Position numbers and translations under genes: made by a program. A DNA stretch of 64,000 nucleotides from positions 12,666 to 76,665 of the forward strand of contig CACWHK010000004.1 in assembly GCA_902760755.1 (NCBI GenBank). The letters are read 5' to 3'. The DNA comes from an uncultured Lachnospiraceae bacterium. GTDB lineage: Bacteria > Bacillota > Clostridia > Lachnospirales > Lachnospiraceae. Positions 33,211-51,023 of this stretch are shown piece by piece. The notes below the pieces were generated by a model. It saw only the letters and a list, made by a program, of their open reading frames with translations, was not told the origin of the DNA and ran no database searches. Within the stretch, counting starts at the first letter, position 1. The number at the start of each line of letters is the position of its first letter.

Positions 33211-36200
33211 ATGAAGAACAGCTTGTTTCGCGTGATCAGAAAAAAATACGCCAGACTGCTGGTATCCATGCTGTTGGTATCATCGCTGGGATGTGGAATC
33301 ATGTCCGGCATGTCCAATGGCTTTTTGTCGTTGAAACAGACACTGAATGAGTATATTTCGGATATGGGATATCCGGATGTGGTGATCTCGACGACAACCA
33401 CAACCAAAGACAAGGCAGATCTGCTCCGTGCCCTGGATGGCGTGGAGGAGGTGAATCCGAGACTGAAGGGAAATCTTGTTCTGATCGACAGAGAAGGGCG
33501 CTACATCTCAGCAGAAGCCCTGACCTACGACGAACAGGATTTTTCAAAGTTTTATTACTGGGAAAAGGTGGATAAAAAGGGAGAATATCCAATCCTTATG
33601 GAGCACGCCTTTTGTGAAAGCAATGGAATTCATGCAGGGGACGAACTGACGGCCCGGCTGGGAGAGGATGAAAGGCTCTGTACGGTATATGGCGTGATCT
33701 CCAGACCGGAAACCCTGTCAACTCCAAGCATCGGACGTATGAAGGCATCCCCCATGGATGTCTGCTATATATATGTCCCCGCGTCGATTCTGGAGGATGA
33801 AGAAAACCCGGAATATGTGAAGGCCTTTGCCGAGTGGGAAACGAAGAACCGGGAATATGAAGAGGCAAAGGAAAAAGCGGATTCGGAGCACGAAAAGACT
33901 TTGGATCAGATTACGGATTCCGAAAAACAGCTGTCGGAAAAAGAAAAGGAAATGACGGAAAAGCTTTCGGAAGCGGAGCAGCAGAAGGAGTCCCTGCTCC
34001 GGAACCGGGAGGAGCTAAGAAAGAAACAGCAGGAATTGGCGGAACTGGAAAAGCAGCTTCAGTCGAAGAAGGATGAGCTTGCGGATGGTGAAAAGAAGCT
34101 TTTGCAGGAAAAGCAAAAGCTGGAGGATTCGAAGAAGGAACTGGCCGGAAAGCGTGAGGAACTGGACCGGACCAAAAAGGAACTGGAGGCGCAGTATAAC
34201 GAACTGAAGACGAAGCTGGATGAGGGAAGGCGTAGTCTGGATGAGAATAAGAAAAAGATCGACGAGTGGAAAGAGCTGATCCGGATTCTGGAAGACAATA
34301 AGGATCAGATCGAACAGATCGTAGGGAGTATTAATCTTCCGAAGGATACCTATGAACGTGCATCCGCTCTTGTTTCGGATGTGGACCGGATTCTTTCGAA
34401 TACGGACTATGTGATCAGAATGCTGAAGTCCTTTGATCAGATAATCCATGATGTGAATGTGGACTCCCTGCTGGATCATATGGGACAGTATTCCGATACA
34501 CTACGAAAGCTCCGGGATCAGTTGAGTGACGCGGTAAAGCGGGCGGAGGATCCGGCGGTAGTGGAAAAGTTTCGGGAGGAGATCATATCCCAAAGCCGGT
34601 TATTCCTGGATACCTTTGTAAAAGACAGTAAAACCGTGAAGGAGGTTGTTGATTCCGCGGTTCTTTACGTGAAGGATATGGAGACTAAGCTGGAGGAGGG
34701 CTATAAACAGCTGGAGGAGTATTCCGGTTATCTGAAGCAGATCGAGGAAGGCCTTCGGACCGTCGATGCCGGATACGGAGAGCTGGAGAAGTACGAGAAG
34801 AAGCTTTCGGATGGTGAGAAGCAGATCCGGGACGGCGAAAAGACGCTGGATTCCTACAGAAGCCAGATCCGGGACGGTGAAAAGCAGATCGCTGACGGGA
34901 GAAAAGAGATCGAGAAGTATCTGATCGAGATCGAGAAAGCAATCGAAGCCATCGAGCAGGGAATCCTTGACGGAAAAACAGAGTTTGAAAATGCACGGGA
35001 CCTGCTGAAGGAAGCAAAGGCAGAGGTCCAATCCGAGTGGTCGAAGATCCTGAAGGAACTGTCCCGGGGTGAGGAGGAGCTTGCGAATGCAAAGGATCAG
35101 CTGGATGACTGGCAGGGATATGAAAACTTCTGCAATCAGTTCCTGATCCGGGTTTCGGAGGGCATGGATCCGGAAGATGTACGACGCCGGGCAGAGGAAG
35201 CCCTGCTTGATGTTGAGATCAAGGAAAGCTACACGTATCAGACATCAGAACTCCGGGATAAACTGGAGGGAGAAAACTTAAGTCCTCTGGAGATCATGAC
35301 CATGTACATCCCCATGGTCTTCTTTGGCGTTGCACTGATCGTGATCTTCCTTTTCATGAATCTACTGGTTCGGCGGTGCCGCAGGGAGATTGGAATTCTG
35401 CGTGCCCTTGGCTTTTCTAAGCGTTCCATCGTATCGCAGTTTTGTACGGTGAGCCTGATCGTCTCCCTTGGTGCAGTTTTGATCGGGGCACTTATGGGGA
35501 TTATCGTGGGAAGATTGATCGGTAACAGCTTTCAGGACTTTCTTGATCTCTATTATATGAACCACCAGTTTTACTGGGGACGGATCCTGCTTGCTGCCGG
35601 TATAACGGTGCTGGTGGGACAGATCGCCACCTTGCTTAGCATGGGCTATGTGAATCATATTGCGCCTGCGGAGGCCATGACCAGGCCGGCTCCGAAGGAG
35701 GCGTTCCATGCAAGCGGTTTTATGAGAAATTCCAACTCGTTTTTCAAATACAGTGTATTTTCACTGATGAGGAATAAAATGCGGTTTTTCTTTACCGTGA
35801 TCTGTCTTGCCGCTTCATCCATGCTGATGTTCTCAGCCTTTTCCTTCGGGGCATGCAAGGATAAGCTTCTGGTCAGCTATTACGAAGACCGGGTCAACTA
35901 TGACTGCGAAGCGTTTTTCAGTTATGAACCTTCTGCAGAAAAGATCGGAGAGCTGGAGCGGCTTGGGATCGCAAGCTCGCCGGAGTCCGTCAGGTATTAT
36001 AAAAAGGAGATCCGTTTCGGGGATGCTTCGGAAGAGGCTTTCATCCAGGCAATCCCAAAGGATACCGATAAGGTCAGAATCCTTGATTCCGATGAAAAGG
36101 ATTTAAGGCTATCGGAGGAGGGCCTGATTCTGGAGAGATATATCGCTGAGAAACTGAACCTTAAGGCGGGAGATGTGGTTACCATCGACGGAGAGAGTTT

Positions 36201-36822
36201 CCCGGTAACAGCCATTTCCGAGCAGTATGAAGGCCGTGTTCAGTTTATTTCTCTGGAAGCGGCAGAACGTCTCGGGGAACCTGTATTTTACTCGGTTCTC
36301 CTCTCGGTGGAACCGGATCAGCAGATCAAACTGGGGCAGAAGTTATCGGAGGTTGACGGATATATCCTTGCGTCCTTTATCGACCGGAATTACAACTATT
36401 GGAAGAAAAACTTCCGGGGCTTTACTGCCTGCGTGATTGCCGTCATTCTGTTCTCGGTCCTGATCGGATTTGTAATTATAACAAATACGCTTCTTGCCAA
36501 CCTTCTGGAGCAGAAGAAGGATCTCTGTATCCTCCGGACACTGGGCTTCCAGTGCTCTGAACTATCCTTCCGCCTGTTTTTCCAGACAGCGCTATATTAT
36601 GTATTCGCCTGTCTGATCGGGATTCCGGCGGGAGCGCTGGTGGCAAAAATGGCGATCGATCATATGGAGACGGAGGGAAGAAGCTATCCCTTTGTGAATG
36701 AACCGTATCTTTACCTGCAGACCGCCGCGCTGGTTCTCGGGTATCTGATCATCGGGCATATCATATCCATGAAGTCCCTTCGGAAGTGGGATATTGTGGA
36801 GAGTGTGAAGGATAAAGAGTAA
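33211..36822 (+). CDS. FtsX-like ABC exporter permease with long coiled-coil extracellular insert
   Basis: Two FtsX halves (REIGILRALG, KDLCILRTLG) and about 450 aa of E/K-rich heptads. Confidence 0.9.
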   Translation: MKNSLFRVIRKKYARLLVSMLLVSSLGCGIMSGMSNGFLSLKQTLNEYISDMGYPDVVISTTTTTKDKADLLRALDGVEEVNPRLKGNLVLIDREGRYISAEALTYDEQDFSKFYYWEKVDKKGEYPILMEHAFCESNGIHAGDELTARLGEDERLCTVYGVISRPETLSTPSIGRMKASPMDVCYIYVPASILEDEENPEYVKAFAEWETKNREYEEAKEKADSEHEKTLDQITDSEKQLSEKEKEMTEKLSEAEQQKESLLRNREELRKKQQELAELEKQLQSKKDELADGEKKLLQEKQKLEDSKKELAGKREELDRTKKELEAQYNELKTKLDEGRRSLDENKKKIDEWKELIRILEDNKDQIEQIVGSINLPKDTYERASALVSDVDRILSNTDYVIRMLKSFDQIIHDVNVDSLLDHMGQYSDTLRKLRDQLSDAVKRAEDPAVVEKFREEIISQSRLFLDTFVKDSKTVKEVVDSAVLYVKDMETKLEEGYKQLEEYSGYLKQIEEGLRTVDAGYGELEKYEKKLSDGEKQIRDGEKTLDSYRSQIRDGEKQIADGRKEIEKYLIEIEKAIEAIEQGILDGKTEFENARDLLKEAKAEVQSEWSKILKELSRGEEELANAKDQLDDWQGYENFCNQFLIRVSEGMDPEDVRRRAEEALLDVEIKESYTYQTSELRDKLEGENLSPLEIMTMYIPMVFFGVALIVIFLFMNLLVRRCRREIGILRALGFSKRSIVSQFCTVSLIVSLGAVLIGALMGIIVGRLIGNSFQDFLDLYYMNHQFYWGRILLAAGITVLVGQIATLLSMGYVNHIAPAEAMTRPAPKEAFHASGFMRNSNSFFKYSVFSLMRNKMRFFFTVICLAASSMLMFSAFSFGACKDKLLVSYYEDRVNYDCEAFFSYEPSAEKIGELERLGIASSPESVRYYKKEIRFGDASEEAFIQAIPKDTDKVRILDSDEKDLRLSEEGLILERYIAEKLNLKAGDVVTIDGESFPVTAISEQYEGRVQFISLEAAERLGEPVFYSVLLSVEPDQQIKLGQKLSEVDGYILASFIDRNYNYWKKNFRGFTACVIAVILFSVLIGFVIITNTLLANLLEQKKDLCILRTLGFQCSELSFRLFFQTALYYVFACLIGIPAGALVAKMAIDHMETEGRSYPFVNEPYLYLQTAALVLGYLIIGHIISMKSLRKWDIVESVKDKE

Positions 36823-36865: not shown

Positions 36866-39800
36866 ATGGACAGAGTTGAAAAGAATTCCGGATACTGGTC
36901 AGAGCTGATGGCAGATTCCGGCAGGTATCTGAAATTCTATAACATCAAAGGAAACGACTATGGTTCCGTACCGGTCAGAATAAAGGAAGACAGTGTCCTT
37001 GCCCATGTGAGTGAGACGAATTCTTCGTTGTTTGACTTTTACGGGAGCGTATTTGCGCTGTATCTGTCACGGATCGACCGGCTCCCCGGTGTTTTGATGT
37101 ATACCGGAATGCCTGCAAAGGAAGGTGAACAGCCCGGAAGGAAGACGCTGCTCAGGGTTCCTGTGGATCAGGAGAGCAGCTTCCCGGATTTCCTTCGGTC
37201 CTTTAAAGCAGCGTATCAGGAGGCTGTGGAGCATACGGATGTTGATGTGAGTCAGTATCTTACGGAGAAAGGCTCCTATTACTCGGTTTATGACCTTTCT
37301 GATTCTGATGAGAGTAAGGATGCGAATTCGGAGGATGCCTATGCCCTGATGCTGATCCTTCGGGAAGGCGCAGTGGAGATAAAGTATAACACCGGGCTTT
37401 TCACGGAGACGTATATAAGTCACATGGTGAAGAATCTGGAAAGCTTAACCGATGAGATCCTTCGCTCTCAGGAATGTAAGATTTCGGATCTGGACATTCT
37501 TTCGAAAGAGGAGAAGGAATGCCTATCCGAATTCTCCAAGGGTAAAACCATTGAAGTAGATCAGGACAGGATGTTTGCAGAGGCGTTCCGAAGCTTTGCG
37601 GCAGAGAATCCGAATGCTCTGGCGGTAGATGACGGGGTGAATAAGATCAGTTATGTAGAACTGGAGAGATCCAGCAATTCCGTGGCTTATGATCTGGCAA
37701 ACCGGTTCCATATTGCCCCCGGCAGCCGCGTGGCATTAATGCTTCCGAGAACCTATCATTTCCCGGAACTGGTTCTGGCTTTGAATAAGATTGGTGCAGC
37801 TTATGTTCCCATCGATACACAGTTTCCGGTGAACCGAATCCGGCATATGATCGGCATCGCCGGAGTGGATCATTTCATCACAGTAAAAGCCATAGGAGAG
37901 AAACTGGATTCGGACATCCGTGTGATCTGTCTGGAAGATCTTAAATATGACCATGATGTGGTAGTGGAGATACAGAGTAAAAAAGAGGACTTGTTCGCTA
38001 TCCTCTTTACCTCCGGCACCACAGGCATCCCCAAGGGAGTTATGTTTTACAACCGGCAGTTCCCATGGGCTGCCGTAGCTTTAACGGATGTGTTTCATAC
38101 CTCCTGCGGGGACTGCATGGGATCTTTCTTCAGCTTCAGCTTTGTGGCATCCTTTGTGGTCTGTGCAGCACTTTTTATGGGTTGCTCCCTCAGACTGTTC
38201 AACGAAGAGGAGCAAAGGAACAGCCTGCTGCTGATCAAGGCGCTGAAAGAAAATCATATGAACAGCCTGATCCTGCCTCCGACGGTGGGAATTCCCATCT
38301 ACGAAAGGGAAGATCTGAATCTGGATTATCTGGTCCTGGCCGGTGCTAAGCTGAATGAACTCAGTCATACAGAGAGACACACCAGGCTGGTGAATTTCTA
38401 CGGCACCACCGAAACCATAGTAGCCATCAGTAAGATCTATGATCTGGAGAACACTAAGGACGACCGGGTTCCTTTGGGAAGACCGGTTGCGAATACCTCG
38501 GCCTATATTCTGGATGAGCAGAATCGTCAGATGCCTGTAGGCGTTCCCGGTGAGATCTGCATATCCGGTGGCATTATGACGCCCGGATATTGCAATGATC
38601 AGGAGCTGACCGCCAAAAGCTTTGTGGAGAATCCCTATTCTGACTGCGATACCAACCGGACCATGTATCGTACCGGTGATATCGGCTATTATAATTTTGA
38701 TGGCGAGATCGAGATCATCGGACGGGAAGATGACCAGCTTTCTGTCAGAGGCTTCCGGATCGAATCCGGCGAGATCTCAGCCATCATGAAGAGCTTCCCG
38801 GAGATTGCTGATGTATGTCTGGATGTTGAAAATGATACACTGACCGCGTATTATACACTCTCGAATAAAACCGGTGTGGATCAGAAAACGGAAGATGCGG
38901 ATCAGGATTCGGAGCAGAATGATGACCTGTTGGAGAACCGGATCAGGGAAGCCCTGAAGCGGGAACTGCCCTATTATATGATTCCATCCCTTTTTGTAAA
39001 GCTGGATAAGATTCCGCTGAATATCAACGGAAAGGTCGATAGAACCGGCCTGAAAAGGGTGGCCCGGCAGCAGAACATAGAGATCAAGGATGAAACCCTC
39101 CGTGCAGTTGTGGAAGCGTTCCGTGAGGTTCTTAGGTTAGAGGTTGTACTGCCGGATGACCGCTTTGTTGCTCTGGGCGGAACCTCTCTTTCTGCCATGA
39201 GGCTGCAGCTTCTGCTGCAGGATAAGCTGAAGATCAGTCTCTCCGCGAATGAACTGATCGGCCTTTCCACGCCGGAGGAGATTGCGGATTATGTAAGGTC
39301 GAATCGAAATGCCCATCCGGTGGTGGATGAGAAGAAGTATTCCTTCGATGCACCATGTCCCTTATCAGAGTCTCAACTGAATATATACCTGGATGAAAGC
39401 GTACATGACCGGGAAACTGCGTATAACAACCCGTTCACTCTGCGGTTCAAAAAGGACGGATTTTCTGCAGATCTGCTGAAGCAGGCACTGCAGAAGGTGT
39501 TTAAAGCATTCCCGATATTAAAAGCACGTGTCCTGAATCAGGATGGTGCTTTGTCCCTCTGCTTTGATGCGGAACCCGTGATCACGGAAGGATCTGTAGA
39601 GGAGATCGGGTCCTTTGTCGTGCCCTTTAAAACGGATGAATGCCTCGCCAGATTTCTGATCGCCCGGGACGGAGAAGCTACGATCCTGTGCGCGGATGTT
39701 CATCACCTGATCTTTGACGGTGTTTCGTTAAATGTCTTCCTGAACAGCCTCTTTTCTGCTTTAGGGGAGGAAGCGTTGGATTCCGTGGATCGGGGATTAT

Positions 39801-42800
39801 TTAAGGAACTGGCCTTCGAGGAAGCAGTCGCTTCCTCCGGTATGGACGAGGCAAAGGCATTTTACAGAGAGATGCTTGCCGACAGAGAAGAAGCCCATGA
39901 ACTGCTGCCTTCCGTCACCGGAGCAGGGGAAGATTTTGAATATATAGAGACTTTTGACATGGATATGGAGCAGCTGGCTTCCTTTCTTCGAAAGCATGCC
40001 ATCACCCACAACCAGTTTTTTGCGGGTGTCTTTGCCTATACCCTTTCCAGGTTCACCGGCGGAGAGAAGGCACTCTTTAATCTGATCGAAGACGGAAGGG
40101 GGCATGTGGATCTGTCCCGGTCTATCGGAATGTATGTAAAGACACTTCCGGTTCTTATGGACTGTAAGGATCAGGACATGGCGTCCTTCCTTTCGTTAGT
40201 CTCGGAACGGATCAATTCCGTCATGAAGTATGACCTGGTCCCCTTCCGTATCCTGGCTTCCGAATTTGATCTTACCGCAGGTATTCTGTTCCAGTATTCT
40301 CATGCCATGTTTACGGATGCCCTGAACATGGAGGGAAGAAATATAGAGATCGAACCGTTAAAGCATGATCTGGATTCGGAGCTGTCCTTTAATGTTTTAA
40401 ACAACGGGGAGAAGGGACTGACACTCAGGATCCTTTCCTCCTCCCGCTATTCGGAGGAATTTATTACTCGTTTTGCCAAAGCGTATCAGCAGATCCTCCG
40501 GGGGATGATGACGGCAGAGCGGCTGAAGGAGATTCCTTATACATCCGAAGAGGATATCTCTCTGCTAAATGGCTGGAACCTGACGGAAGTTAGTCTTCCC
40601 TATGGGCATATTCTGGAGGCTTTCCGTGATACCCTGTCCAAGTATCCGGAAAATAAAATGGTTGTATATAAGGATGCATCCTATACCTTTGCGGAGGGGG
40701 CTTTTATCGCGGATCGGATCCGGCAGAAGCTTCTTTCCCTTGGCATTACGCCGGAGGACAGAGTCGGATTTCTGGTCCCCCGTTCGGAGCTGTATATGTT
40801 CTCCGTTTTAGGTATTCTTTCCACAGGTGCAGCCTATGTTCCGTTGGATGAGAATCTGCCGGATGAACGTCTGTCCTTCATGATTCAGGATGCCGTAACC
40901 GGTTGTCTGATCGTAAGCGATGATACACAGGAACGGGCAAAGAAGCTGGCAGGGGACGGTATTACCCTTTTCAATATCTCCGGGATCATGAAAGAGGATA
41001 TCGGAACGCTGACGGAGCTTACCTTTACTCCGGGAACGATTGCTTCCATACTCTACACCAGCGGCAGTACCGGTATTCCGAAAGGTGTGAAGATTACTAC
41101 AGGAGCGGTACTAAACTATACATCTTTCCACCTGAAGAAGATCCCGCTTCTTCCGGGAGATGTTTGTGCGTTATATGCTTCCATCGGGTTTGATGTCTCC
41201 ATGGAGGTTCTCTTCTCCGTGCTTTCCTCCGGTGCATGTATGGATATCGTTCCGGAAGAGAAGAAGCTGGATATTCATGCGCTGAATCGTCATTTCGTGG
41301 AGCATGGTGTGACGCAGGCACATCTCCCTGCGCAGATGGCCCGGCTGTTTATCCGTGAGATTGCTGATACATCCCTTCGGGATCTGGTAAGCGGCGGAGA
41401 GAAGCTGGGGCGGGTTCGTGTTGACAGAGATTACAGGATCACGGATACCTATGGGCCTACGGAAGCATGTATAACCGTGACATGTATCGATCTGAAGGAT
41501 AAGATCGATCCGTCCGGTATCGGTTTTGTGATCAGCAATATGAAAGCGTATGTTCTGGACAAAGAGCGAAGAAGAGTACCGGTGGGGGCTGTGGGAGAAC
41601 TGTATCTCTCCGGCCTGCAGCTTGCAGACGGATACCTGAACCGTAAGGAGGAAACCAACCGGGCATTTTTGACGAATCCTTTTGAAGACAGAAAGGAATA
41701 TGGAATCATCTATGCCACAGGGGATGTGGTAAGGGTTTTGCCGGATGGAAGGTACGGATTCATCGGAAGGCGGGACAGCCAGGTAAAGATCCGTGGAAAC
41801 CGGCTGGAACTTACGGAAGTCGAAGCCGTGATCCGAAAGATCGATGGGGTAAGCGATGTGACCGCCCAGATCCGGAAGCTGGACGGGAATAATGAACTGG
41901 TCGTTTATGTTGTATCAGAGGATCCGGATAATGAATCCGCCGCGAACAGGGTAGTATCTTATCTAAGTGGCCGTGTACCGGAGTATATGGTTCCATCCTT
42001 TGTGATCCGTCTTGACAGCATTCCGGTGAATGTCAATGGTAAGGTGGACAAGCGTGCATTACCGGAGGTTGATTTCGGCATGCTGCATGCAGAGTATGCT
42101 GCACCCCGAAATGAACTGGAAGAACGAGTTGTCCGTGAATTTGAAAGAGTCTTTGAACTGGAGCAGGTCGGAATCAATGATGATTTCGTCCGCCTTGGCG
42201 GCGACTCCCTGACGGCGGTGAAGCTGGTTTCTGTTTTGGGAAATACCGGCATCACGGTCGGCGATATTCTGCGCCTTCGGACGCCGGCGGCCATTGCCGA
42301 TACTATGAAGGGATCTTTGTATTCGTTCAAGGCTGATCTCACGAAATACTCCTATGACAGACCCTGTCCATTATCGGAATCCCAGTTAAATGTATATCTG
42401 GATGAAAGCGTTCATGAAAAGGGAACGGCATATAATATTCCCTATATCATCCGGTTCCGTGAAAACTATTCCCCGGACAGGATCAGGGCTGCGCTGGAGG
42501 AACTTCTTACGGCATATCCGGTCCTGCGAGGCCGGGTCCGGGATACGGAAGGGTCACCGGCCATGGCATATGACGCGGAACCCGAAATCCGGGAAGGCTC
42601 CGTGGATGAGATCAGTTCCTTTGTAAGGCCGTTCGAACTGGAAAAAAGTCTGTCGAGATTCATGATCCTCCGGGAGGAAGACGCCACAGTTCTTTGTGTG
42701 GATTTCCACCATCTGGTCTTTGACGGCGCTTCCATGAATGTCTTCCTGGATAGTCTGGGGGCTCTCTTGCAGGGAGATACCATAGACTCTGTAGATATGG

Positions 42801-45800
42801 GAATGCTACAGGAGACTTCCCTGGAAGAGTTCATCCGTTCGTCCGGAATGGATGAGGCTCTCGACTTCTATGCTCATATGCTTGCCGACAGGGATGAGGT
42901 TTATCCCATGCTCCCGTCTGTGAATGGTGCAGAGAAAGCTTTTGAATCAATCCATACCTTCGACATTGATAAGAAGCAGTTGGACGCTTTCTTACGGAAG
43001 CATTCCATGACACGTAACCAGTACTTTATGGGTATCTTTGCCTATACCCTTTCCAGGTTCAGCGGCTCGGAGAAGGTGCTTTTCAATCTGATCGAAGACG
43101 GAAGAGGCCATATGGACCTGTCCCGTTCCATCGGAATGTATGTAAAGACCCTGCCGATCCTTATGGATTGCCGGAATCAGAAGGTTGATGCTTTTCTTTC
43201 CTACGCATCGGATCTCATGAATTCCGTGATGGAATATGATCTGGTTCCGTTCCGAACGCTTGCTTCCGGATATGAATTGAATGCCGGGACTACATTCCAG
43301 TATGCACATTCTCTCTATATGGATACCCTGAACCGATACGGGCAAAGTCTCAAACTTGAGCCGCTGCCGCAGGATCCGGATGCGGAGCTTTCCTTCTATG
43401 TATTTGACAATGAAGATGACGGCCTGATCCTTCGGATCAAGTCTTCCTCACGTTATTCGGAAGATTTTATACAACGCTTTGCCGAGTCCTATGAAATGAT
43501 TCTCCGGAGTATGATGACAGCTGAGCGGATGCAGGAGATTTCTTATATTTCCACGAAGGATCTGTCACTGTTAAACGGCTGGAATCAGACAGAAGCGAAA
43601 CTCCCCTATGGGCATATTCTGGAGGCTTTCCGTGATACCCTGTCCAAATATCCGGGAAATAGATTAGTGACATATAAGGATACATCCTATACCTTTGCCG
43701 AGGGGGCTTTTATCGCGGATCGGATCCGGCAGAAGCTTCTTTCGCTTGGCATTACGCCGGAGGACAGAGTCGGATTTCTGGTGCCCCGTTCGGAGCTGTA
43801 TGTGTTCTCTGTTTTAGGTATTCTTTCCACAGGTGCAGCCTATGTTCCGCTGGATGAGAATCTGCCGGATGAGCGTCTGTCCTTTATAATCCGGGATGCA
43901 GTGAACGGGTGTCTTATCGTTAGCGATGATACTCAGGAACGGGCGGAAAAGCTGGCCGGGTATGGAAGTACCCTTTTCAACATCTCCGGGATACTGAAAG
44001 AGGAGATCGGAACGCTGACGGAGTTGCCTTTTACTTCAGGCAATATTGCTGCCATACTTTACACCAGCGGTAGCACCGGCATTCCGAAAGGGGTGAAGAT
44101 TACCGCGAGATCCGTGCTGAATTTCGCTACGTCCCATAGGAGGGATATACCGCTTCTTCCGGGAGATAATTGTGCTTTATATGCTTCCATCGGGTTTGAT
44201 GTGTCCATGGAGGTTCTCTTTTCCGTGTTTTCTTCCGGCGCATGCATGGATATCATTCCAAACGAGAAAAAGCTGGATATTCAGGCGCTGAATCGTCATT
44301 TCGTAGACCGGGGTGTGACACAGGCACATCTTCCCACACAGATAGCCCGGCTATTCATTCAGGAGATTGCTGATACCTCCCTTCGGGATCTGGTATGCGG
44401 CGGAGAGAAACTGGGACAGGTGAGTGTTGACAGAGATTACAGGATCACAGATACCTATGGTCCGACCGAGGCGTGTGTATATGTTACCAGTATCGATCTG
44501 AAAGAGAAGATCGATCCTTCAAGTATCGGTTTTGTGATCGGCAATACGAAAGCGTATGTTCTGGACAAAGAGCGTAGAAGAGTACCGGTGGGTGCTGTGG
44601 GTGAATTGTATCTCTCCGGGCCGCAGCTTGCGGACGGATACCTGAACCGCGAGGAAGAAACTGCCCGTGCATTTCTTCCGAATCCTTTTGAAGAAGGCTC
44701 GGGATACTATAGTACATTCTATGCCACAGGAGATGTGGTAAGAATCTTACCCGATGGCAGTTACGGATTCATCGGACGACGGGACAGTCAGGTGAAGATC
44801 CGGGGGAACCGGCTGGAATTATCAGAAGTTGAAGCTTTGATCCGAAAGATCGACGGGGTAAGTGACGTGACTGCCCGGATCCGGAAGCTGGATGGAAATA
44901 ATGAGCTGATCGTTTATGTTGTAACGGAGGATCCGGATGAGGAAGCGGCAGCGAGCAGGGTACAGTCGTACCTCACCGGTCGTGTGCCGGATTATATGAT
45001 TCCTTCCTTTGTGATCCGGATGGACAGTATACCGCTGAATGTCAACGGGAAGGTGGATAGGCGTGCGCTGCCGGAGGTTGACTTCAGCAGGCTGCACGCA
45101 GAGTATGCTGCACCGAGAAATGAACTGGAAGCGCGTATCGTCCGTGAATTTGAACGGGTATTTGAAATGGAACGGATCGGTATCCATGATGATTTCATGA
45201 GCCTGGGTGGAGATTCCCTGACTGCGGTGAAACTGCTGTCAGGTCTTCGGGACTATGGAATTAGGGTGGCGGATATTCTAAGCCTTCGTACGCCGGCGGC
45301 CATAGCTGAGGGAGTGGAGGAGCTGTCTCCGAAAAAGGTACATTATACCCTTGACAGTGGCTGCCCGTTGAACAACTCCCAGATGACGATCTATAAGGAC
45401 TATGAAAAACGCAGGAAAAATGACACCTTTATGATTCCGGTGATCATTCCCATCGATAAAAGATACAGCAAGAAGCAGATCCGGAGAGCGCTGGATATTG
45501 TATTTAAGGCACATCCGGTGATGAGCATGCATGTGGAACTCCGGGATGGAACCCCCTGGCTTGTAAAGGGTTCCAACCCGGAGGTACGGAAGGGTGTGAC
45601 CAACCTGGCGAATATGATCAGGCATCTGGAAGAGGAGTTTGATATCTTCGAAAGCCTGTCAAAGCATGTGGTCGTAAGAACACCGAGAAAGCGTTATCTG
45701 GTGTCGATCTTCCATCATATCTGCTTTGACCTTATATCCGGGAACGTGTTCCGAAGGGAATTCCTGAATGCGCTGAGGGGTGTAGTGCCGAAGCACGTAG

Positions 45801-46546
45801 ATACCGATTTCTTAAAGATAGCCGCTTTCCAGCAGCAGACCCGAAACAGCGAGGGATATGATCAGATCATGCAGGATGCCAGGACCATGTTAGGGAATCG
45901 GAAGGGAGTCGGTTTCTACCGAAATCCCGGAGAAATGGGGCATGCCGGATTTATCATGCAGGAGCTTTCCGTAAGCAGGAAGCAGGTAAAGAGATTTACG
46001 GACAGATTCGGAACCAACAAAAACATTTTATTTACTTCGGCGCTGGCCCTCACCTTAGCCGGACTGACCGGGAAGGATGACGTCCTCTTCGGCATAAATG
46101 AGAACGGACGGGACAGATTCCTAAGCTATAACGCCATTGGTTTATATATGAATGTTGTCCCTATGGTGGCGCATGTGGACCGTCGGAATATGAAGACGTT
46201 TCTGAAGAGTCTTTCTGATCAGTATTATAAATATGCTCGACTCAGTCATTATCCCTTTGGGCCTCTGGCGCTGGAATTAGGTGTTTCACCGATCATCTTG
46301 TTCCAGTTTTTGCCGGAATGGATCATTGATGACGGTGGATATGATCATTTACCGGTCGGGGAGAAGGTGCTCAATAAAATCGTCTCGACGATGACGGACC
46401 TTGTGGTGGAAGCACATATGGAGCTTGTGGAAGGGAAGAACGGCTATACGCTCCGGATCTACCATTCAGGATATTACAGCAGAAAGATGATCAAACGGCT
46501 GGCGTATACCTATCAGGAGACATTATCCCGGATGCTGAGGGACTAA
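36866..46546 (+). CDS. Non-ribosomal peptide synthetase: partial C-A-T-C-A-T-C-A-T-C, no thioesterase
   Basis: Three A domains (TSGTTGIPKG, TSGSTGIPKG x2; YGTTE/YGPTE; TGD; NGKVD). T domains GGTSL, GGDSL, GGDSL. C domains HHLIFDG, HHLVFDG, HHICFDL. Confidence 0.95.
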   Translation: MDRVEKNSGYWSELMADSGRYLKFYNIKGNDYGSVPVRIKEDSVLAHVSETNSSLFDFYGSVFALYLSRIDRLPGVLMYTGMPAKEGEQPGRKTLLRVPVDQESSFPDFLRSFKAAYQEAVEHTDVDVSQYLTEKGSYYSVYDLSDSDESKDANSEDAYALMLILREGAVEIKYNTGLFTETYISHMVKNLESLTDEILRSQECKISDLDILSKEEKECLSEFSKGKTIEVDQDRMFAEAFRSFAAENPNALAVDDGVNKISYVELERSSNSVAYDLANRFHIAPGSRVALMLPRTYHFPELVLALNKIGAAYVPIDTQFPVNRIRHMIGIAGVDHFITVKAIGEKLDSDIRVICLEDLKYDHDVVVEIQSKKEDLFAILFTSGTTGIPKGVMFYNRQFPWAAVALTDVFHTSCGDCMGSFFSFSFVASFVVCAALFMGCSLRLFNEEEQRNSLLLIKALKENHMNSLILPPTVGIPIYEREDLNLDYLVLAGAKLNELSHTERHTRLVNFYGTTETIVAISKIYDLENTKDDRVPLGRPVANTSAYILDEQNRQMPVGVPGEICISGGIMTPGYCNDQELTAKSFVENPYSDCDTNRTMYRTGDIGYYNFDGEIEIIGREDDQLSVRGFRIESGEISAIMKSFPEIADVCLDVENDTLTAYYTLSNKTGVDQKTEDADQDSEQNDDLLENRIREALKRELPYYMIPSLFVKLDKIPLNINGKVDRTGLKRVARQQNIEIKDETLRAVVEAFREVLRLEVVLPDDRFVALGGTSLSAMRLQLLLQDKLKISLSANELIGLSTPEEIADYVRSNRNAHPVVDEKKYSFDAPCPLSESQLNIYLDESVHDRETAYNNPFTLRFKKDGFSADLLKQALQKVFKAFPILKARVLNQDGALSLCFDAEPVITEGSVEEIGSFVVPFKTDECLARFLIARDGEATILCADVHHLIFDGVSLNVFLNSLFSALGEEALDSVDRGLFKELAFEEAVASSGMDEAKAFYREMLADREEAHELLPSVTGAGEDFEYIETFDMDMEQLASFLRKHAITHNQFFAGVFAYTLSRFTGGEKALFNLIEDGRGHVDLSRSIGMYVKTLPVLMDCKDQDMASFLSLVSERINSVMKYDLVPFRILASEFDLTAGILFQYSHAMFTDALNMEGRNIEIEPLKHDLDSELSFNVLNNGEKGLTLRILSSSRYSEEFITRFAKAYQQILRGMMTAERLKEIPYTSEEDISLLNGWNLTEVSLPYGHILEAFRDTLSKYPENKMVVYKDASYTFAEGAFIADRIRQKLLSLGITPEDRVGFLVPRSELYMFSVLGILSTGAAYVPLDENLPDERLSFMIQDAVTGCLIVSDDTQERAKKLAGDGITLFNISGIMKEDIGTLTELTFTPGTIASILYTSGSTGIPKGVKITTGAVLNYTSFHLKKIPLLPGDVCALYASIGFDVSMEVLFSVLSSGACMDIVPEEKKLDIHALNRHFVEHGVTQAHLPAQMARLFIREIADTSLRDLVSGGEKLGRVRVDRDYRITDTYGPTEACITVTCIDLKDKIDPSGIGFVISNMKAYVLDKERRRVPVGAVGELYLSGLQLADGYLNRKEETNRAFLTNPFEDRKEYGIIYATGDVVRVLPDGRYGFIGRRDSQVKIRGNRLELTEVEAVIRKIDGVSDVTAQIRKLDGNNELVVYVVSEDPDNESAANRVVSYLSGRVPEYMVPSFVIRLDSIPVNVNGKVDKRALPEVDFGMLHAEYAAPRNELEERVVREFERVFELEQVGINDDFVRLGGDSLTAVKLVSVLGNTGITVGDILRLRTPAAIADTMKGSLYSFKADLTKYSYDRPCPLSESQLNVYLDESVHEKGTAYNIPYIIRFRENYSPDRIRAALEELLTAYPVLRGRVRDTEGSPAMAYDAEPEIREGSVDEISSFVRPFELEKSLSRFMILREEDATVLCVDFHHLVFDGASMNVFLDSLGALLQGDTIDSVDMGMLQETSLEEFIRSSGMDEALDFYAHMLADRDEVYPMLPSVNGAEKAFESIHTFDIDKKQLDAFLRKHSMTRNQYFMGIFAYTLSRFSGSEKVLFNLIEDGRGHMDLSRSIGMYVKTLPILMDCRNQKVDAFLSYASDLMNSVMEYDLVPFRTLASGYELNAGTTFQYAHSLYMDTLNRYGQSLKLEPLPQDPDAELSFYVFDNEDDGLILRIKSSSRYSEDFIQRFAESYEMILRSMMTAERMQEISYISTKDLSLLNGWNQTEAKLPYGHILEAFRDTLSKYPGNRLVTYKDTSYTFAEGAFIADRIRQKLLSLGITPEDRVGFLVPRSELYVFSVLGILSTGAAYVPLDENLPDERLSFIIRDAVNGCLIVSDDTQERAEKLAGYGSTLFNISGILKEEIGTLTELPFTSGNIAAILYTSGSTGIPKGVKITARSVLNFATSHRRDIPLLPGDNCALYASIGFDVSMEVLFSVFSSGACMDIIPNEKKLDIQALNRHFVDRGVTQAHLPTQIARLFIQEIADTSLRDLVCGGEKLGQVSVDRDYRITDTYGPTEACVYVTSIDLKEKIDPSSIGFVIGNTKAYVLDKERRRVPVGAVGELYLSGPQLADGYLNREEETARAFLPNPFEEGSGYYSTFYATGDVVRILPDGSYGFIGRRDSQVKIRGNRLELSEVEALIRKIDGVSDVTARIRKLDGNNELIVYVVTEDPDEEAAASRVQSYLTGRVPDYMIPSFVIRMDSIPLNVNGKVDRRALPEVDFSRLHAEYAAPRNELEARIVREFERVFEMERIGIHDDFMSLGGDSLTAVKLLSGLRDYGIRVADILSLRTPAAIAEGVEELSPKKVHYTLDSGCPLNNSQMTIYKDYEKRRKNDTFMIPVIIPIDKRYSKKQIRRALDIVFKAHPVMSMHVELRDGTPWLVKGSNPEVRKGVTNLANMIRHLEEEFDIFESLSKHVVVRTPRKRYLVSIFHHICFDLISGNVFRREFLNALRGVVPKHVDTDFLKIAAFQQQTRNSEGYDQIMQDARTMLGNRKGVGFYRNPGEMGHAGFIMQELSVSRKQVKRFTDRFGTNKNILFTSALALTLAGLTGKDDVLFGINENGRDRFLSYNAIGLYMNVVPMVAHVDRRNMKTFLKSLSDQYYKYARLSHYPFGPLALELGVSPIILFQFLPEWIIDDGGYDHLPVGEKVLNKIVSTMTDLVVEAHMELVEGKNGYTLRIYHSGYYSRKMIKRLAYTYQETLSRMLRD
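39338..45310 (+). repeat. Tandem duplication of one NRPS C-A-T module (~3.0-kb period)
   Basis: Long identical DNA tracts, e.g. CCCTATGGGCATATTCTGGAGGCTTTCCGTGATACCCTGTCCAA at 40598 and 43604 (offset 3006). Confidence 0.88.
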
Positions 46547-46653
46547 GCAACGCTTCCCGTATACAGCGGGAAAAAGAGGTGCTATAATAATGCGTGCAAA
46601 GGGGAAGTAGTAAGCATTTATTTGGTAAAGGAAAAGAAGGAGAGGCGGAAGGT

Positions 46654-48795
46654 ATGAAGAAAAAACTGGTAAGCTGGATTCTGGTTGCAGCATTCCTGAT
46701 CTCGGGCATAGCCATAAATGCCCCCGATACTGCGGACGCTGCAAGCGGAACGTGGAAGAGTGATTCCAAGGGATGGTGGTATAGCTATTCCGACGGGTCA
46801 TATGCAAAGAACCAGTGGCTGCAGTATGGGGGAAAGTGGTATCATTTTGGCTCGAATGGTTATATGCAGACCGGATGGCAGCAGATCGACGGCAAGTGGT
46901 ATTACTTTGCGGCCTCCGGTATCATGCAGACCGGGTGGAAGCAGATCTCCGGAAAGTGGTACTTCTTTGCATCCGGAGTCATGCAGACGGGCTGGAGGAA
47001 GTTCTCAGGCGTCTGGTACTATTTCGGATCCAACGGTGCCATGCAGACCGGATGGAAGCAGCTCTCCGGGAAGTGGTATTATTTCTCTGCAGCAGGAGAG
47101 ATGCAGACCGGCGTTTTCACGATCAAGGGAAAGAGCTATTACTTCGGGAAAGACGGAGCATGGGTTGACCGTGAGCCGCCGATCAGGATCGATAAGGCAC
47201 ATTTCCCGGATGATAACTTCAGAGCCTATATAAAACAGGCCTTTGACGAGAACAAGGACGGGTCTCTTAGTGCAAATGAGATCATGCTGATCTGGAATGT
47301 TCACTGCGAGAACATGAACATTTATTCCGTGAAGGGGATCGAGTACTTCCCGGATCTGAAGGGACTCTGGTGCAAGGGAAATCATATCTCCGAGCTGGAT
47401 CTTTCCGGAAATCCGGGACTTAAGGGAATCTGGTGCTCCTTTAATGACTTCACATCTCTTGACTTTTCGGATTGTCCGGAGCTGGAGTGGGTATACTGCT
47501 TCAACTGTAAGCTGAAATCCCTGAATATCCGGAATAATCCGGAGATGGCTTATCTGGAGTGCAATTCCAATCCGGATCTGAAAACCCTGGATCTTACGCA
47601 GAACAGCAAGCTGGAAAATCTTTTCTGCAGTAAATGCGGACTGACCAAGCTGGACGTTTCGAAGAATCCGCTGCTTTGCGAGCTGGCGGCATTCTATAAT
47701 GACCTGAAAACCGTCGATGTATCCAACAATCCGAACCTGAAGCGGCTGGATATCTGGCATAATCCGAAGCTCGGAAATGTGGATGTCAGCAATCTGTCGG
47801 GACTTCAGTACTACAACTGTGCATGGACCTCGCTGACCAAGATCGATGTGACCCATAATCCGGAGCTGGTGGAGCTGGTCTGCGGATATAATGACGGACT
47901 GAAATCGCTGAATCTTTCCAGGAATCCCAAGCTGGCGTATCTGGCAGTGGAGTGCGATGTGAACCTGAAGTCTCTGGATGTTTCCAAGAATCCGAGGCTG
48001 TATTATCTGTTGGCATTCGGACTCAGCAGCATCGATAAGATCGATATCAGCCAGAACAGTCGTCTTTGCAAGGCTTATAATGAAGGCGAATATGTACATG
48101 AAACCGAGAATCTCGGAGCTGTCTACTCCATGACCATCGATTATGGCGGAAGCAGTGATCCCTTCGATGAGCTGAGACACTGTGTATGCTTTGATGACGG
48201 GTCTACCATCGTCGGTACCTATAAGGGTAAGAATGATGTAAAGGACAGTGTGCTCAATACGAAGGATGGCCATAAGAGTTCGGAGAAGTTTGTTACCAGA
48301 GCCCAGGCTATGCAGGCGCTGTATGAAGCGGCAGGAAGTCCGGCAGTATCGGGTAAATCCCGGTTTACGGATGTATCCTCCTCGGCATCCTATGCAAAGG
48401 CAGTGAAGTGGGGTGAGGATAAGAAGATCTGTTTCGGTTATCCCAATATCAGTTCGGATAAGTTCTGCCCGAATGAGCTGATCAGCAGACAGGATTTTGC
48501 GCTTATGGCCCATAGATATGCAGGTGTCATGGGCTTCGGAACGGCCCTGGACTACGGAAGAACCGACTGGTTTAATGACTACTTCGATATCGATTTTTAT
48601 GCATGGTGCCCCTTTACCTGGGCTATCCAGTGGCGGGTACTCACCTACGATAAGGATAAGAACCTCTGCTATCCGCGGGGCAGGATGACTGAGGCTGAGC
48701 TTGAGTCGGCCGTTAAGGAGATCTTTGATCTGGATGAGGGCGCTGCTTATTCCGGTATCGTAGGCGGAAATGAAGGAGACCCGAGCGGAAACTGA
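46654..48795 (+). CDS. Surface protein: cell-wall-binding repeats, leucine-rich repeats and SLH-like domains
   Basis: Signal peptide; MQTGW repeats; FPDDNFR cap and L-x-x-L-D-V-S-x-N-P-x-L LRRs; VTRAQAM/FTDV/ISRQDF SLH-like motifs. Confidence 0.88.
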   Translation: MKKKLVSWILVAAFLISGIAINAPDTADAASGTWKSDSKGWWYSYSDGSYAKNQWLQYGGKWYHFGSNGYMQTGWQQIDGKWYYFAASGIMQTGWKQISGKWYFFASGVMQTGWRKFSGVWYYFGSNGAMQTGWKQLSGKWYYFSAAGEMQTGVFTIKGKSYYFGKDGAWVDREPPIRIDKAHFPDDNFRAYIKQAFDENKDGSLSANEIMLIWNVHCENMNIYSVKGIEYFPDLKGLWCKGNHISELDLSGNPGLKGIWCSFNDFTSLDFSDCPELEWVYCFNCKLKSLNIRNNPEMAYLECNSNPDLKTLDLTQNSKLENLFCSKCGLTKLDVSKNPLLCELAAFYNDLKTVDVSNNPNLKRLDIWHNPKLGNVDVSNLSGLQYYNCAWTSLTKIDVTHNPELVELVCGYNDGLKSLNLSRNPKLAYLAVECDVNLKSLDVSKNPRLYYLLAFGLSSIDKIDISQNSRLCKAYNEGEYVHETENLGAVYSMTIDYGGSSDPFDELRHCVCFDDGSTIVGTYKGKNDVKDSVLNTKDGHKSSEKFVTRAQAMQALYEAAGSPAVSGKSRFTDVSSSASYAKAVKWGEDKKICFGYPNISSDKFCPNELISRQDFALMAHRYAGVMGFGTALDYGRTDWFNDYFDIDFYAWCPFTWAIQWRVLTYDKDKNLCYPRGRMTEAELESAVKEIFDLDEGAAYSGIVGGNEGDPSGN

Positions 48796-48924: not shown

Positions 48925-48956
48925 CCAATACATACTTGATTTTATGGAGGTACGCA

Positions 48957-50141
48957 ATGAAGAAGAAGCAGGAGGGGGACAGACTTACGATCTGTCTGGA
49001 TGGACGAGTAGATTCGACGAATGCAGCGGATTTTGAAAGGGAATTGCTGGAGGCAGCTGCCGGTGCGTCCGGTGAAGATATTATACTGGATGCAGAGGAA
49101 CTGGAGTATATTTCCTCGGCGGGCCTACGGGGGTTGATGAAGCTGAGAAAACAGACGGGCAGGTCCATGTCGATCGTGAATGTCTCGCCGGATATATATG
49201 AGATCTTTGATACAACAGGGTTTACGGACCTTTTTGATGTGAAGAAGCGTCTCCGCAGTATCAGTGTCGAGGGGTGTGAGAAAATCGGAAGGGGTGCAAA
49301 CGGAGAGATCTATCGTCTGGACCCGGAAACCATAGTGAAGGTATATACAGGTGTCCGGAATTCACCGGAGAAGATCGCACACAACAGAGAGCTTTCCAAG
49401 AAGGTGTTTACCCATGGAATTCCTTCCGTAATACCCTTCGATATGGTAAAGGTCGGGGATGATTATGGTCTGGTATATGAAATGCTTTCCGGCGGTTCTC
49501 TGGCGAATCATCTTTCCAAACATCCGGAAGAGATTGAACTTTACGGAAAGAAGCTTGCAGAGCTTCTCCGTACGCTTCATGAGACAACCTTTGAGAAGGG
49601 AGAGCTTCAGGATGCCAGAAAGCCGTATCTGGATGATATAGAGCTTCTCCGAAACACCGGATGGTATACGGATGCAGAGGCGGATCGGCTGATCACGCTT
49701 GTGGAGGGGATCCCTGAGAGGAATACATTTATCCATCAGGATTTCCATCCCGGAAACATCATGCTGATGGACGGAGAACTGGTACTGATCGATGTGGATG
49801 ATTCGGGAATCGGGCATCCCATGCTGGATCTTATGGGTATGTATCAGGTTTATGTTGCTGCGGCCAAAACAGGATGGACAAAGATGATGATGGGGCTTGG
49901 AGAGGAAGAGTTCCGGCCTCTTTGGAATACGGCACTTCTGGAATACCTTGGGAAGGAACATGTGGATGATATTCCGGAGATCAACAGAGTGCTTCAGGGA
50001 TATACAAGAATGAAGCATATCCGCGGTGTGGCTACATCGCCGCAGGTTCCGGAGGAGCTGAGGAAGCCTGCCGTGGAAAGGGAAAAGGCTGAATTGTTTG
50101 ATGTGATAGACACGTTGTATCCGGTTCCGAAATGGTTCTAA
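48957..50141 (+). CDS. STAS (anti-anti-sigma) domain fused to an APH/choline-kinase-like phosphotransferase
   Basis: GRVDSTNA, YISSAGLR (STAS); GRGANG, IVKVY, HQDFHPGNIM, LID (kinase). Confidence 0.88.
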   Translation: MKKKQEGDRLTICLDGRVDSTNAADFERELLEAAAGASGEDIILDAEELEYISSAGLRGLMKLRKQTGRSMSIVNVSPDIYEIFDTTGFTDLFDVKKRLRSISVEGCEKIGRGANGEIYRLDPETIVKVYTGVRNSPEKIAHNRELSKKVFTHGIPSVIPFDMVKVGDDYGLVYEMLSGGSLANHLSKHPEEIELYGKKLAELLRTLHETTFEKGELQDARKPYLDDIELLRNTGWYTDAEADRLITLVEGIPERNTFIHQDFHPGNIMLMDGELVLIDVDDSGIGHPMLDLMGMYQVYVAAAKTGWTKMMMGLGEEEFRPLWNTALLEYLGKEHVDDIPEINRVLQGYTRMKHIRGVATSPQVPEELRKPAVEREKAELFDVIDTLYPVPKWF

Positions 50142-50168
50142 GCTGGATGGACTGCAGATTAAAGGATT

Positions 50169-51008
50169 ATGATGATGGAAAAACAGGGAATTGATCTGCC
50201 GGGGATCGGAAATGCGAGAGAACTCGGCGGATATAGAATCAAAGATAAGGTGATCCGTCGGGGAGTTCTTCTTCGAACAGGAAAGCTGGATCAGGCAGCT
50301 TCGGAGGCGTTGCAGCTGTTGCAGGATAAGTACAGGCTGCAGACAATCGTGGATTTCCGGATGAGCACGGAAAAAACCGGGCAGTCAGATCCGGAGATTC
50401 CCGGGGCAGAGTATGTCCACCTTCCGGTATTTGAGATAGAGGATATGATGGACGGGGCTGATCCCGGGCTGGTGGCATTTTATATGGAACATGCAACGGA
50501 TCGAATGGCGCTGTTCGAGTTGAGCTATGAGCAAAAACTGGTGGATGAAAAGCTTTATGTCCGGTTTTTACTGGGAGACCGTGGAAAGCATGCAGTGAAG
50601 GAGTTCTTTCGGCTGCTTATGGAGTTGGAGAAAGAAAGAGCAATCCTCTGGCACTGCGCAGACGGGAAGGATCGCACAGGCTGTGCAGCCATGCTGATCC
50701 TGTTCGCTCTTGGCGCGGATCGGGAGCTGGTCCTTCGGGATTACCTTCTGACGAACGAATATAATGCCCCGATTCTGGAAGCGATACGGGCAAAGGTGGC
50801 TCCGATGAGGATGCCGGAAGATAAACTGAAGCTGCTTCTTTTTATGTCAGGGGGAGTATTCCCGGAGTATATGGATCATGCGATCGACGCGCTGTGCGAG
50901 CACTATGGATCGGTTCAGGGGTACCTTGAAGAGGAGATCGGACTGGGAAAATATGAGCTGGAGAAGCTGAAGGAGGCTTTTCTGGTAACGGATGATCATG
51001 ATCAATAA
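50169..51008 (+). CDS. Cys-dependent tyrosine/dual-specificity phosphatase (PtpB/IphP-like)
   Basis: NARELGG, DFR, HCADGKDRTG P-loop, DYLLTN. Confidence 0.92.
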   Translation: MMMEKQGIDLPGIGNARELGGYRIKDKVIRRGVLLRTGKLDQAASEALQLLQDKYRLQTIVDFRMSTEKTGQSDPEIPGAEYVHLPVFEIEDMMDGADPGLVAFYMEHATDRMALFELSYEQKLVDEKLYVRFLLGDRGKHAVKEFFRLLMELEKERAILWHCADGKDRTGCAAMLILFALGADRELVLRDYLLTNEYNAPILEAIRAKVAPMRMPEDKLKLLLFMSGGVFPEYMDHAIDALCEHYGSVQGYLEEEIGLGKYELEKLKEAFLVTDDHDQ

Positions 51009-51023
51009 TAGTGGAGGTTAATT

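Follow-up and report, generated by a model that had tools for sequence, protein, structure and literature searches.

The stretch of DNA analysed here (the window; 64,000 nucleotides of contig CACWHK010000004.1, from an uncultured Lachnospiraceae bacterium of the ruminant gut) contains a gene for a three-module nonribosomal peptide synthetase (NRPS) at positions 36866-46546 of the forward strand. We consider the encoded protein to be an intact synthetase without a thioesterase (TE) domain, which would begin its product with a non-amino acid, add two amino acids, and release the chain by means of a terminal condensation (C) domain, with an adjacent ATP-binding cassette (ABC)/FtsX transporter serving for export or protection. 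The probability that we give to this reading as a whole is about 0.55. The architecture of the protein, its pocket residues, its membership in a family, the recurrence of the ABC pair beside members of that family and the duplication of a module are observed directly. From there we infer what class of substrate is used, how the chain is released and what the transporter does, as follows. The first adenylation (A) domain, A1, would adenylate a hydrophobic acid (a 2-oxo, aryl-alkanoic, or short- or medium-chain fatty acid) and load it onto the first carrier (T) domain, T1; C2 and C3 would then add two amino acids picked by the near-identical A2 and A3 domains, module 3 being a recent copy of module 2; the terminal C domain would condense the capped dipeptide with a nucleophile that is not carrier-bound, most likely a free amine; and the ABC ATPase and FtsX permease, which are encoded upstream and co-oriented with the NRPS, would export the product or protect the producer. 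For the product, our best guess is a dipeptide that carries an acid cap and is transferred to a free nucleophile on release.

Domain architecture and the loading head

The reading frame encodes 3226 amino acids and is open throughout, with no internal stop codons. Based on Pfam searches with the entire protein and with seven pieces of it, the domain order is a truncated C remnant, A1-T1-C2-A2-T2-C3-A3-T3, and a terminal C domain that extends to the stop codon, all on the forward strand. The N-terminal 235 residues (36866-37570) are the remnant of a starter condensation-like domain, of which only the C-terminal lobe is present, without the HHxxxD region. A1, the loading domain, lacks Asp235 and spans 37571-39100 (Pfam AMP-binding match, residues 241-575), and T1 follows at 39104-39295 (PF00550, residues 747-810), with GGTS at residue 771 and the carrier serine at Ser774. 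The first elongation module consists of C2 (39359-40522; PF00668, 138 bits, residues 832-1219; HHLIFDG at residue 946), A2 (40622-42043; Pfam, residues 1253-1726) and T2 (42125-42301; residues 1754-1812; GGDS at 1778). The second consists of C3 (42365-43525; residues 1834-2220; HHLVFDG at residue 1948), which is a duplicate of C2, A3 (43628-45052; residues 2255-2729) and T3 (45137-45310; residues 2758-2815; GGDS at 2781). The terminal C domain occupies 45359-46546 (PF00668, 64.6 bits, residues ~2832-3226), with HHICFD at residues 2950-2955 (45713-45730).

All three A domains match PF00501 at 192-208 bits and carry FTSGTTG, YRTGD, GRxDxQ..RGxRIE and NGKVD. The features of a modular type I NRPS are in place: the A domain core motifs are intact, including the A10 lysine, the GGxS serine is carried by three PF00550 carrier domains, and HHxxxD(G) is kept in C2, C3 and the terminal C domain. 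The C domains are compact, in that 388 residues cover profile positions 6-440. Pfam finds neither a TE nor a reductase (R) domain in the protein, and a search of the whole source genome (G000), which is 88% complete, gave no match to PF00975. The same genome has at least two more NRPS loci, of the ordinary type, with open frames of 3957 aa (C14) and 1012 aa (C18).

An initial annotation of the window, which was made from the letters alone, had described this TE-less, three-module layout ending in a C domain, and its sequence observations hold in every detail that was checked. The motifs FSFVAS, GGTS and HHICFDL stand at residues 424, 771 and 2950, the C domains are compact as it had said, its A1 pocket (VAVIVAFVAK, with Val at Asp235) agrees with an alignment to LgrA and with column extraction by hmmalign, and the latter reproduces its A2 and A3 codes exactly. 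What it omitted is the 235-aa C-domain remnant at the start of the protein. Its interpretation has fared less uniformly. The proposal of a non-amino-acid starter, for which it had cited the loss of the Asp that binds the alpha-amino group, and that of a terminal C domain acting as the release device, both gain support from the family comparisons given below, but the interpretation as a whole is borne out only in part.

The remnant is informative about the family as a whole. In the window protein, residues 139-220 match only positions 371-455 of the PF00668 profile, i.e., its last 85 positions. Most homologues are ~140 residues longer at the N-terminus, and these additional residues align with the N-lobe of a C domain. 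In 55 of the 56 sequences with such long heads, the second (catalytic) histidine of HHxxxD is replaced by Ser or Pro, while in the bacterial clade described below the N-lobe is lost entirely. Taken together, the substitution and the loss indicate that the family head carries a dead starter C domain, as judged from its residues. The window protein thus has no complete N-terminal C domain with catalytic HHxxxDG, of the kind used in lipoinitiation; a starter-C-like domain that lacks the catalytic histidine, and is truncated here, fits a starter unit that would need no N-acylation.

A non-amino-acid starter is suggested by the A1 pocket. Val427 (38144-38146) lies opposite Asp235 in the HMMER alignment to LgrA (linear gramicidin synthetase), and the ten pocket columns read V-A-V-I-V-A-F-V-A-K, all hydrophobic. 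This is a property of the family rather than of one protein: the first A domain lacks Asp235 in all 88 members, with V, I, G, T, M or A in its place, and the pockets of these 88 homologues are hydrophobic, with no acidic residue at any of the ten positions. Every downstream A domain in the 88-member family keeps Asp235. Aliphatic residues at position 235 have been tied to the activation of 2-keto acids (PMC10949194, PMC13643306), although one keto-acid A domain that retains Asp235 is also reported (PMC10949194), and Val427 gives A1 the aliphatic residue that distinguishes the keto-acid A domains (Ak or KAL). Modules of the keto-acid type usually contain a ketoreductase (KR), and Pfam finds no KR or SDR family match in the NRPS protein. 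Because a starter unit needs no nucleophile, and because the KR is absent, the safe inference for A1 extends only to a carboxylic acid that is hydrophobic and has no alpha-amino group; for a starter domain, any carboxylic acid would do chemically. The adenylation core motifs of A1 (FTSGTTGIPKG, YRTGD, GREDDQLSVRGFRIE and NGKVDR) are all present, and since they are intact, A1 looks active and its bypass appears unlikely. A special kinship of A1 to the Gly-activating domain of LgrA, which an E value of 7e-105 in the Protein Data Bank (PDB) seemed to indicate, was rejected; the value is the sum of two ordinary 175-bit matches, one to each of the LgrA A domains.

Elongation modules and chain release

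The pocket codes of A2 and A3, as extracted by hmmalign, are DVEHVGTITK and DVEHVGTVYK. The Glu at position 239 in both hints at basic residues as substrates. A literature search for the code strings in support of this assignment yielded nothing usable, and the matches of A2 in the PDB are generic. The two modules are close copies of each other: A2-T2 and A3-T3 are 83% identical, C2 and C3 are 59% identical, and in a tree of C domains the bacterial C3 domains nest within the bacterial C2 domains. From the nesting and the A-T identity, the bacterial three-module form arose by duplication of module 2 in a two-module ancestor resembling P0048, P0063 or P0071.

The gene also has a mosaic structure. 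From the N-terminal piece through C2 it is closest to P0004-P0006 (59-78% identity), and from A2 through the terminal C domain it is 82-87% identical to P0020, the head of which is only 44-62% identical. Close relatives of the gene differ from it in A3. P0002, a cluster representative encoded on a 3.86-Mb contig, has 37 differences to the window NRPS, most of them at residues 2414-2561 (44105-44548), and those in the A3 pocket region give A3 the A2 code. P0003 is 99-100% identical until the A2 pocket and then continues with a P0020-like C-terminal half, in which the A3 code is DMSMVIECYK. By these comparisons, near-identical strains differ by A3 swaps, a natural A-domain exchange such as NRPS engineers seek to imitate.

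Release of the chain would fall to the terminal C domain, which is the last domain in most family members and keeps HHxxFD in nearly all of them. When all C domains are placed in one tree, the terminal ones from bacteria and archaea group together and are distinct from the elongation C domains, with a Shimodaira-Hasegawa-like approximate likelihood ratio (SH-aLRT) support of 96 for their clade; the archaeal ones have an insert of ~60 residues. The window NRPS has the arrangement of synthetases with a terminating C domain: it comes last after the final carrier, retains the catalytic histidine, and is accompanied by neither TE nor R domain. A particularly simple relative, P0178 (1438 aa, on a 17.7-kb contig), appears to be a complete one-module member with the layout N-A-T-Cterm, that is, a head and a tail only, and with this layout its terminal C domain could only use a free acceptor. 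Transfer of the chain to a free nucleophile is the most economical reading for the window protein as well, because the terminal C domains are one orthologous subtype and this domain would be the sole catalytic partner in P0178.

A head-and-tail family in rumen bacteria and archaea

A search with residues 1-830 (N-terminal piece, A1 and T1) matches 88 long proteins over 93-100% of the query, at 39-100% identity. Other bacterial NRPSs reach at most 31% identity, and in the A-T part only; the match of P0203, from the anaerobic rumen fungus Orpinomyces, is likewise at the generic NRPS level (A-T part, ~29% identity). When one genome per species is searched, full-length matches are confined to a rumen Clostridiales metagenome-assembled genome (MAG; 72%) and three Methanobrevibacter MAGs (46-49%). 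The named members are from Methanobrevibacter, where the isolate M. millerae is represented by partial proteins in the P0028 cluster, on the one hand, and Lachnospiraceae and Eubacterium sp. MAGs on the other. The resemblance to Methanobrevibacter NRPSs that the initial annotation had suggested is therefore real and strong, at 46-58% identity over the loading module (N domain, A1 and T1), and the homology search and phylogeny with archaea included, which it had proposed, place archaeal homologues closest outside a few rumen Clostridia.

The two groups also differ in composition. The FYMINK/GARP ratio is sharply bimodal, with 12 sequences at 1.14-1.48, among them the window protein and all named bacteria, and 76 at 1.82-3.57, including all named Methanobrevibacter. 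We refer to these as moderate-GC and low-GC sequences (GC, guanine plus cytosine), a class that for most of the low-GC sequences is given by amino-acid composition only; all named low-GC members are Methanobrevibacter. The archaeal copies are not binning errors, because they sit among clearly archaeal genes (Rpb4/RpoF, NucS, PurP, Lhr).

Members of the family have a common plan. The window NRPS shares its three defining features, i.e., full-length homology over N-A1-T1, a first A domain without Asp235, and an orthologous terminal C domain. Between head and tail the number of modules ranges from one to at least five; the family combines a fixed head and a fixed tail with a variable number of C-A-T modules. 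In a minority of members the tail is a different one, ~220 or ~670 residues long, and a thioesterase match is present in some of these. One frame with the same head, an unusually large archaeal gene in a Methanobrevibacter MAG (G303:C109, from 16654 onward; L012/L108), encodes an NRPS of 10,865 aa. Family copies broken by in-frame stops or frameshifts occur twice in another Methanobrevibacter genome (G301:C17:11988-13169, and L131 3046-10362 on G301:C36).

Matches were found in 6 of 151 sampled genomes of the archaeal family to which Methanobrevibacter belongs, and three Methanobrevibacter genomes have two to six matches each, some of which are fragments or broken copies. Neither the 300 genera sampled from the family of the source bacterium nor the one other genome of its genus yielded a copy of the NRPS head. 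The window stretch itself is present in bovine and sheep gut metagenomes from at least seven studies, and a scan of metagenome contigs returns the same species only, at 99-100% identity.

The initial annotation had suggested a transfer between bacteria and archaea. A single cross-domain transfer is supported by the sequence comparisons, and its direction is left undecided by two approximately unbiased (AU) tests. Acquisition of the NRPS by the bacterial clade from a Methanobrevibacter-like archaeon, the reverse of the published direction, is less likely than not. Under the site-heterogeneous LG+C20 model, the nine bacterial sequences with short heads fall into a single clade (100/99), and outgroup rooting places it deep inside the low-GC sequences, beside the clusters with M. 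millerae proteins; the archaeal side is much the more diverse, with 76 low-GC sequences to 12 of moderate GC and several copies per genome, and the lack of a match to the head in the 300 genera would also be expected of a gene that came from outside. However, the AU test does not reject a topology that unites all low-GC sequences and makes them the sister group of the bacterial clade (p 0.351 with 566 columns); with 1226 columns, p is 0.694 and the constrained tree is 9 log-likelihood units better than the quick-search tree. A nested bacterial clade, and hence a transfer from archaea to bacteria, is for this reason not upheld. Furthermore, all outgroups in the rooted trees are bacterial, and with such outgroups one transfer from bacteria to archaea would be equally or more parsimonious; the reliance on composition in assigning most low-GC sequences also counts against the reverse direction. 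We therefore regard the bacteria-to-archaea direction, which is already published together with the similarity of archaeal and Firmicute NRPSs (PMC2812497, PMC8241843), as at least as parsimonious on this evidence. The position of P0059, P0063 and P0071 at the base of the family in a FastTree phylogeny is a long-branch artefact; LG+C20 joins them to the window clade (100/99).

A more far-reaching picture would be that of a ruminant-gut-specific family, in Methanobrevibacter and a few Clostridia, whose products are peptide amides or esters capped with an acid; head and tail would be constant, and length would be set by inserted or duplicated C-A-T modules. Its bacterial clade would perhaps be of archaeal origin, and its products would be a small-molecule vocabulary common to the methanogens and fermenters of the rumen. 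We offer this picture tentatively, and consider it rather unlikely to hold in all its parts.

Transporters, alternatives and known systems

The ABC/FtsX transporter that the initial annotation had placed directly upstream of the NRPS is indeed there. An ABC ATPase gene (32464-33186, forward strand; PF00005) is followed by a gene for a 1203-aa FtsX/MacB-type permease (33211-36822, forward strand), which matches PF02687 in two stretches and PF12704 (MacB_PCD). This is the arrangement of a MacB/FtsX-type ABC transporter, in which the ATPase gene precedes that of a permease with FtsX and MacB-like extracytoplasmic domains. The ABC, FtsX and NRPS genes are read in the same direction and are separated by 24 and 43 nt, the latter ahead of the NRPS; a promoter-like site is found at 32362-32390, ahead of the ATPase gene, and no strong terminator-like site was found among the three genes. 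Four bovine metatranscriptome runs from two studies contain scattered contigs of 151-342 nt that match the ABC, FtsX and NRPS genes at 95-100% identity, and which may include DNA carry-over. Many stretches are uncovered and no contig bridges the FtsX-NRPS junction, and we make no claim of transcription or co-transcription.

The same association is seen in archaea. In the Methanobrevibacter loci L011, L128 and L131, a head-and-tail NRPS (frameshifted in L131) is directly followed by genes for an ABC ATPase and an FtsX permease of 760-768 aa, and the ATPases are 46-49% identical to that of the window. The link between ABC/FtsX pairs and NRPSs of this family thus recurs across domains, which lends support to the functional link that had been proposed. 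In L131, the ABC and FtsX genes after the broken NRPS copy are intact.

Other genes lie near the NRPS. A gene for a VanY-type peptidase is located just ahead of the ABC ATPase gene. A MATE protein with a tail of ~130 residues that resembles an anti-sigma kinase is encoded at 27636-29378, 7.5 kb upstream of the NRPS. Its full-length homologues (565-594 aa) are present in many copies in Methanobrevibacter genomes, and the one that was checked (L124, G302) has a weak HATPase_c_2 match in its tail. A strong terminator-like hairpin at 31147-31179 (14-bp stem, then a T run), after an ATP-grasp gene, stands between the MATE/ATP-grasp pair and the VanY, ABC, FtsX and NRPS genes. The phosphopantetheinyl transferase to which the initial annotation had pointed is encoded 27 kb upstream of the NRPS (9354-9995, forward strand); it is Sfp-type by PF01648 and PF22624, and is a candidate activator of the NRPS carrier domains. 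Downstream of the NRPS, a surface-protein gene (46594-48795) contains choline-binding repeats. The metatranscriptome contigs show joints and loose ends at 46860-47060, and because this stretch lies inside the repeats, they are most likely mis-joins from related organisms. A Y_phosphatase3 gene flanked by two STAS-kinase (APH) fusions follows at 48936-52232, 2.4 kb downstream of the NRPS, and in five Methanobrevibacter genomes 6 of 13 STAS matches are no more than a few kb away from an NRPS gene. An attempt to delimit an island by synteny with the same-genus genome G210 failed, since there is almost no match at the DNA level over 18000-54000 of the window and the matching contig begins at its own edge.

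Several observations weigh against the scheme that we propose, and they are best considered with the alternatives for its individual steps. The substrate classes are taken solely from pocket residues, and the keto-acid modules described so far usually contain the KR that this NRPS lacks. A1 might instead load an amino-bearing substrate (beta-, N-substituted or otherwise unusual), or might be bypassed, in which case the product would be an ordinary tri- or dipeptide. Specificity codes are imperfect, and the keto-acid domain that keeps Asp235 (PMC10949194) makes clear that the rule has exceptions. We nevertheless find this alternative quite improbable, given a pocket without a single acidic residue here and in the homologues, core motifs that speak against a bypass, and an upstream C-like domain that is dead or truncated throughout the family. 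With respect to release, the terminal C domain has HHICFDL rather than HHxxxDG, shares no more than 27-33% identity with other C domains, and has only weak, generic C-domain matches among solved structures (best E 2e-4), so that it is not assignable to any subtype. It might release the chain without an external amine, through a side-chain lactam at residue 2 or 3 or through hydrolysis, and the product would then be a capped dipeptide that is either cyclic or a free acid. The NRPS literature contains examples of terminal C-type domains that cyclise or hydrolyse. The unusual motif is compatible with such a role, and Lys-, Orn- or Dab-like residues, if these are what A2 and A3 load with Glu at 239, would offer the side-chain nucleophile. 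In P0178, however, the carrier would hold only an amine-free acid, so that cyclisation would not be possible there, although hydrolysis would be; and a single shared chemistry is simpler for one orthologous clade. We therefore consider release without an external amine to be unlikely, and keep a free nucleophile as the probable acceptor.

The role of the transporter is the other step for which an alternative has to be weighed. The window and archaeal FtsX permeases are only ~21% identical, and 46-49% identity is ordinary for this class of ABC ATPases; for these two reasons the recurrence of the pair need not mean co-inheritance. In addition, the NRPS at L010 has no adjoining transporter gene, and the MATE fusion is a second candidate exporter within the window. 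The ABC/FtsX pair might accordingly serve in envelope resistance or unrelated transport alongside VanY, whose gene immediately precedes it, and the usual exporter of the family might be the MATE fusion. Homologues of the latter, together with a small STAS gene, adjoin NRPS genes in Methanobrevibacter (L129 12616-14364, L130 3867-5594 and L132 11165-12880), and the same MATE/STAS/NRPS arrangement was described by Leahy et al. 2010 around mru0068 (mru0066-0071; PMC2812497). In L129, L130 and L132, however, the NRPSs that the MATE and STAS genes flank are of a head-less type, whereas ABC/FtsX pairs flank the head-and-tail NRPSs of L011, L128 and L131; the very short gaps between the co-oriented genes of the window also argue against an unrelated transporter. 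On balance the alternative is improbable, and export or protection by the ABC/FtsX pair remains our preferred assignment.

The NRPSs of rumen methanogens, first described in M. ruminantium M1 by Leahy et al. 2010 (PMC2812497) and surveyed in Methanobrevibacter by Anderson and Fernando 2021 (PMC8241843), are the closest known systems. Rumen methanogens have many NRPS genes and are of interest for methane mitigation (PMC2812497, PMC8024701), and the products of the Methanobrevibacter NRPSs are not known (PMC8024701), as has been the case since 2010. The window gene may be more amenable to expression and chemical work than its archaeal counterparts, because it is a compact bacterial relative of moderate GC content and what seems to be the same species is represented by a complete genome of 3.86 Mb. 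The rules that apply family-wide turn an orphan gene into a biosynthetic scheme that can be tested. The existence of archaeal NRPSs and their similarity to those of Firmicutes are already published; new here are the constancy of head and tail, the finding that the starter C domain is dead, the loss of Asp235 throughout the family, the terminal-C clade, the recurrent ABC/FtsX pair, and the history of duplication and swaps. The Methanobrevibacter NRPSs resemble that of the window in the Asp235-less first A domain, the compact C domains, the orthologous terminal C domain and the ABC/FtsX pair beside several loci. They differ from it in having ~140 more starter-C-like residues and the ~60-residue terminal-C insert, as well as in the number of modules (one to more than five), the internal C domains, which are of another type, and the low-GC composition. 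Two M. ruminantium M1 NRPSs in print end in TE or R domains, and are set beside the family by description.

The other comparisons concern single steps of the scheme. The 2-keto-acid A domains of the cereulide and cryptophycin type are otherwise normal A domains in which an aliphatic residue replaces Asp235, as Val427 does in A1 (PMC13643306, PMC10949194). Their modules differ from that of A1, in that they include a KR, occupy an elongation position and form ester bonds, whereas A1 is a starter without a KR. In the fatty-acid-amide pathway known from gut Clostridia (OaaA, OaaACP and OaaC in Coprococcus eutactus), the C domain has no acceptor carrier and transfers the acyl group to a small-molecule amine that is free (PMC13310621). 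This pathway is similar to our proposal in that a non-amino acid is loaded by an A domain, and in that a terminal C domain without an acceptor carrier would use a free acceptor. The Oaa proteins are free-standing and their C domains carry DHxxxDS (PMC13310621), unlike the single polypeptide of the window, with its two C-A-T modules and HHICFD, and OaaC gives no sequence match to the terminal C domain among solved structures at E values up to 0.01. From its fusion and its motif, the terminal C domain is not of the CFAA (OaaC-like) subtype. Terminating C domains that use a free acceptor share with it the position after the final carrier, the catalytic His pair and the lack of a TE domain, and in the search of solved structures their kinship to it is at the level of the general C-domain fold.

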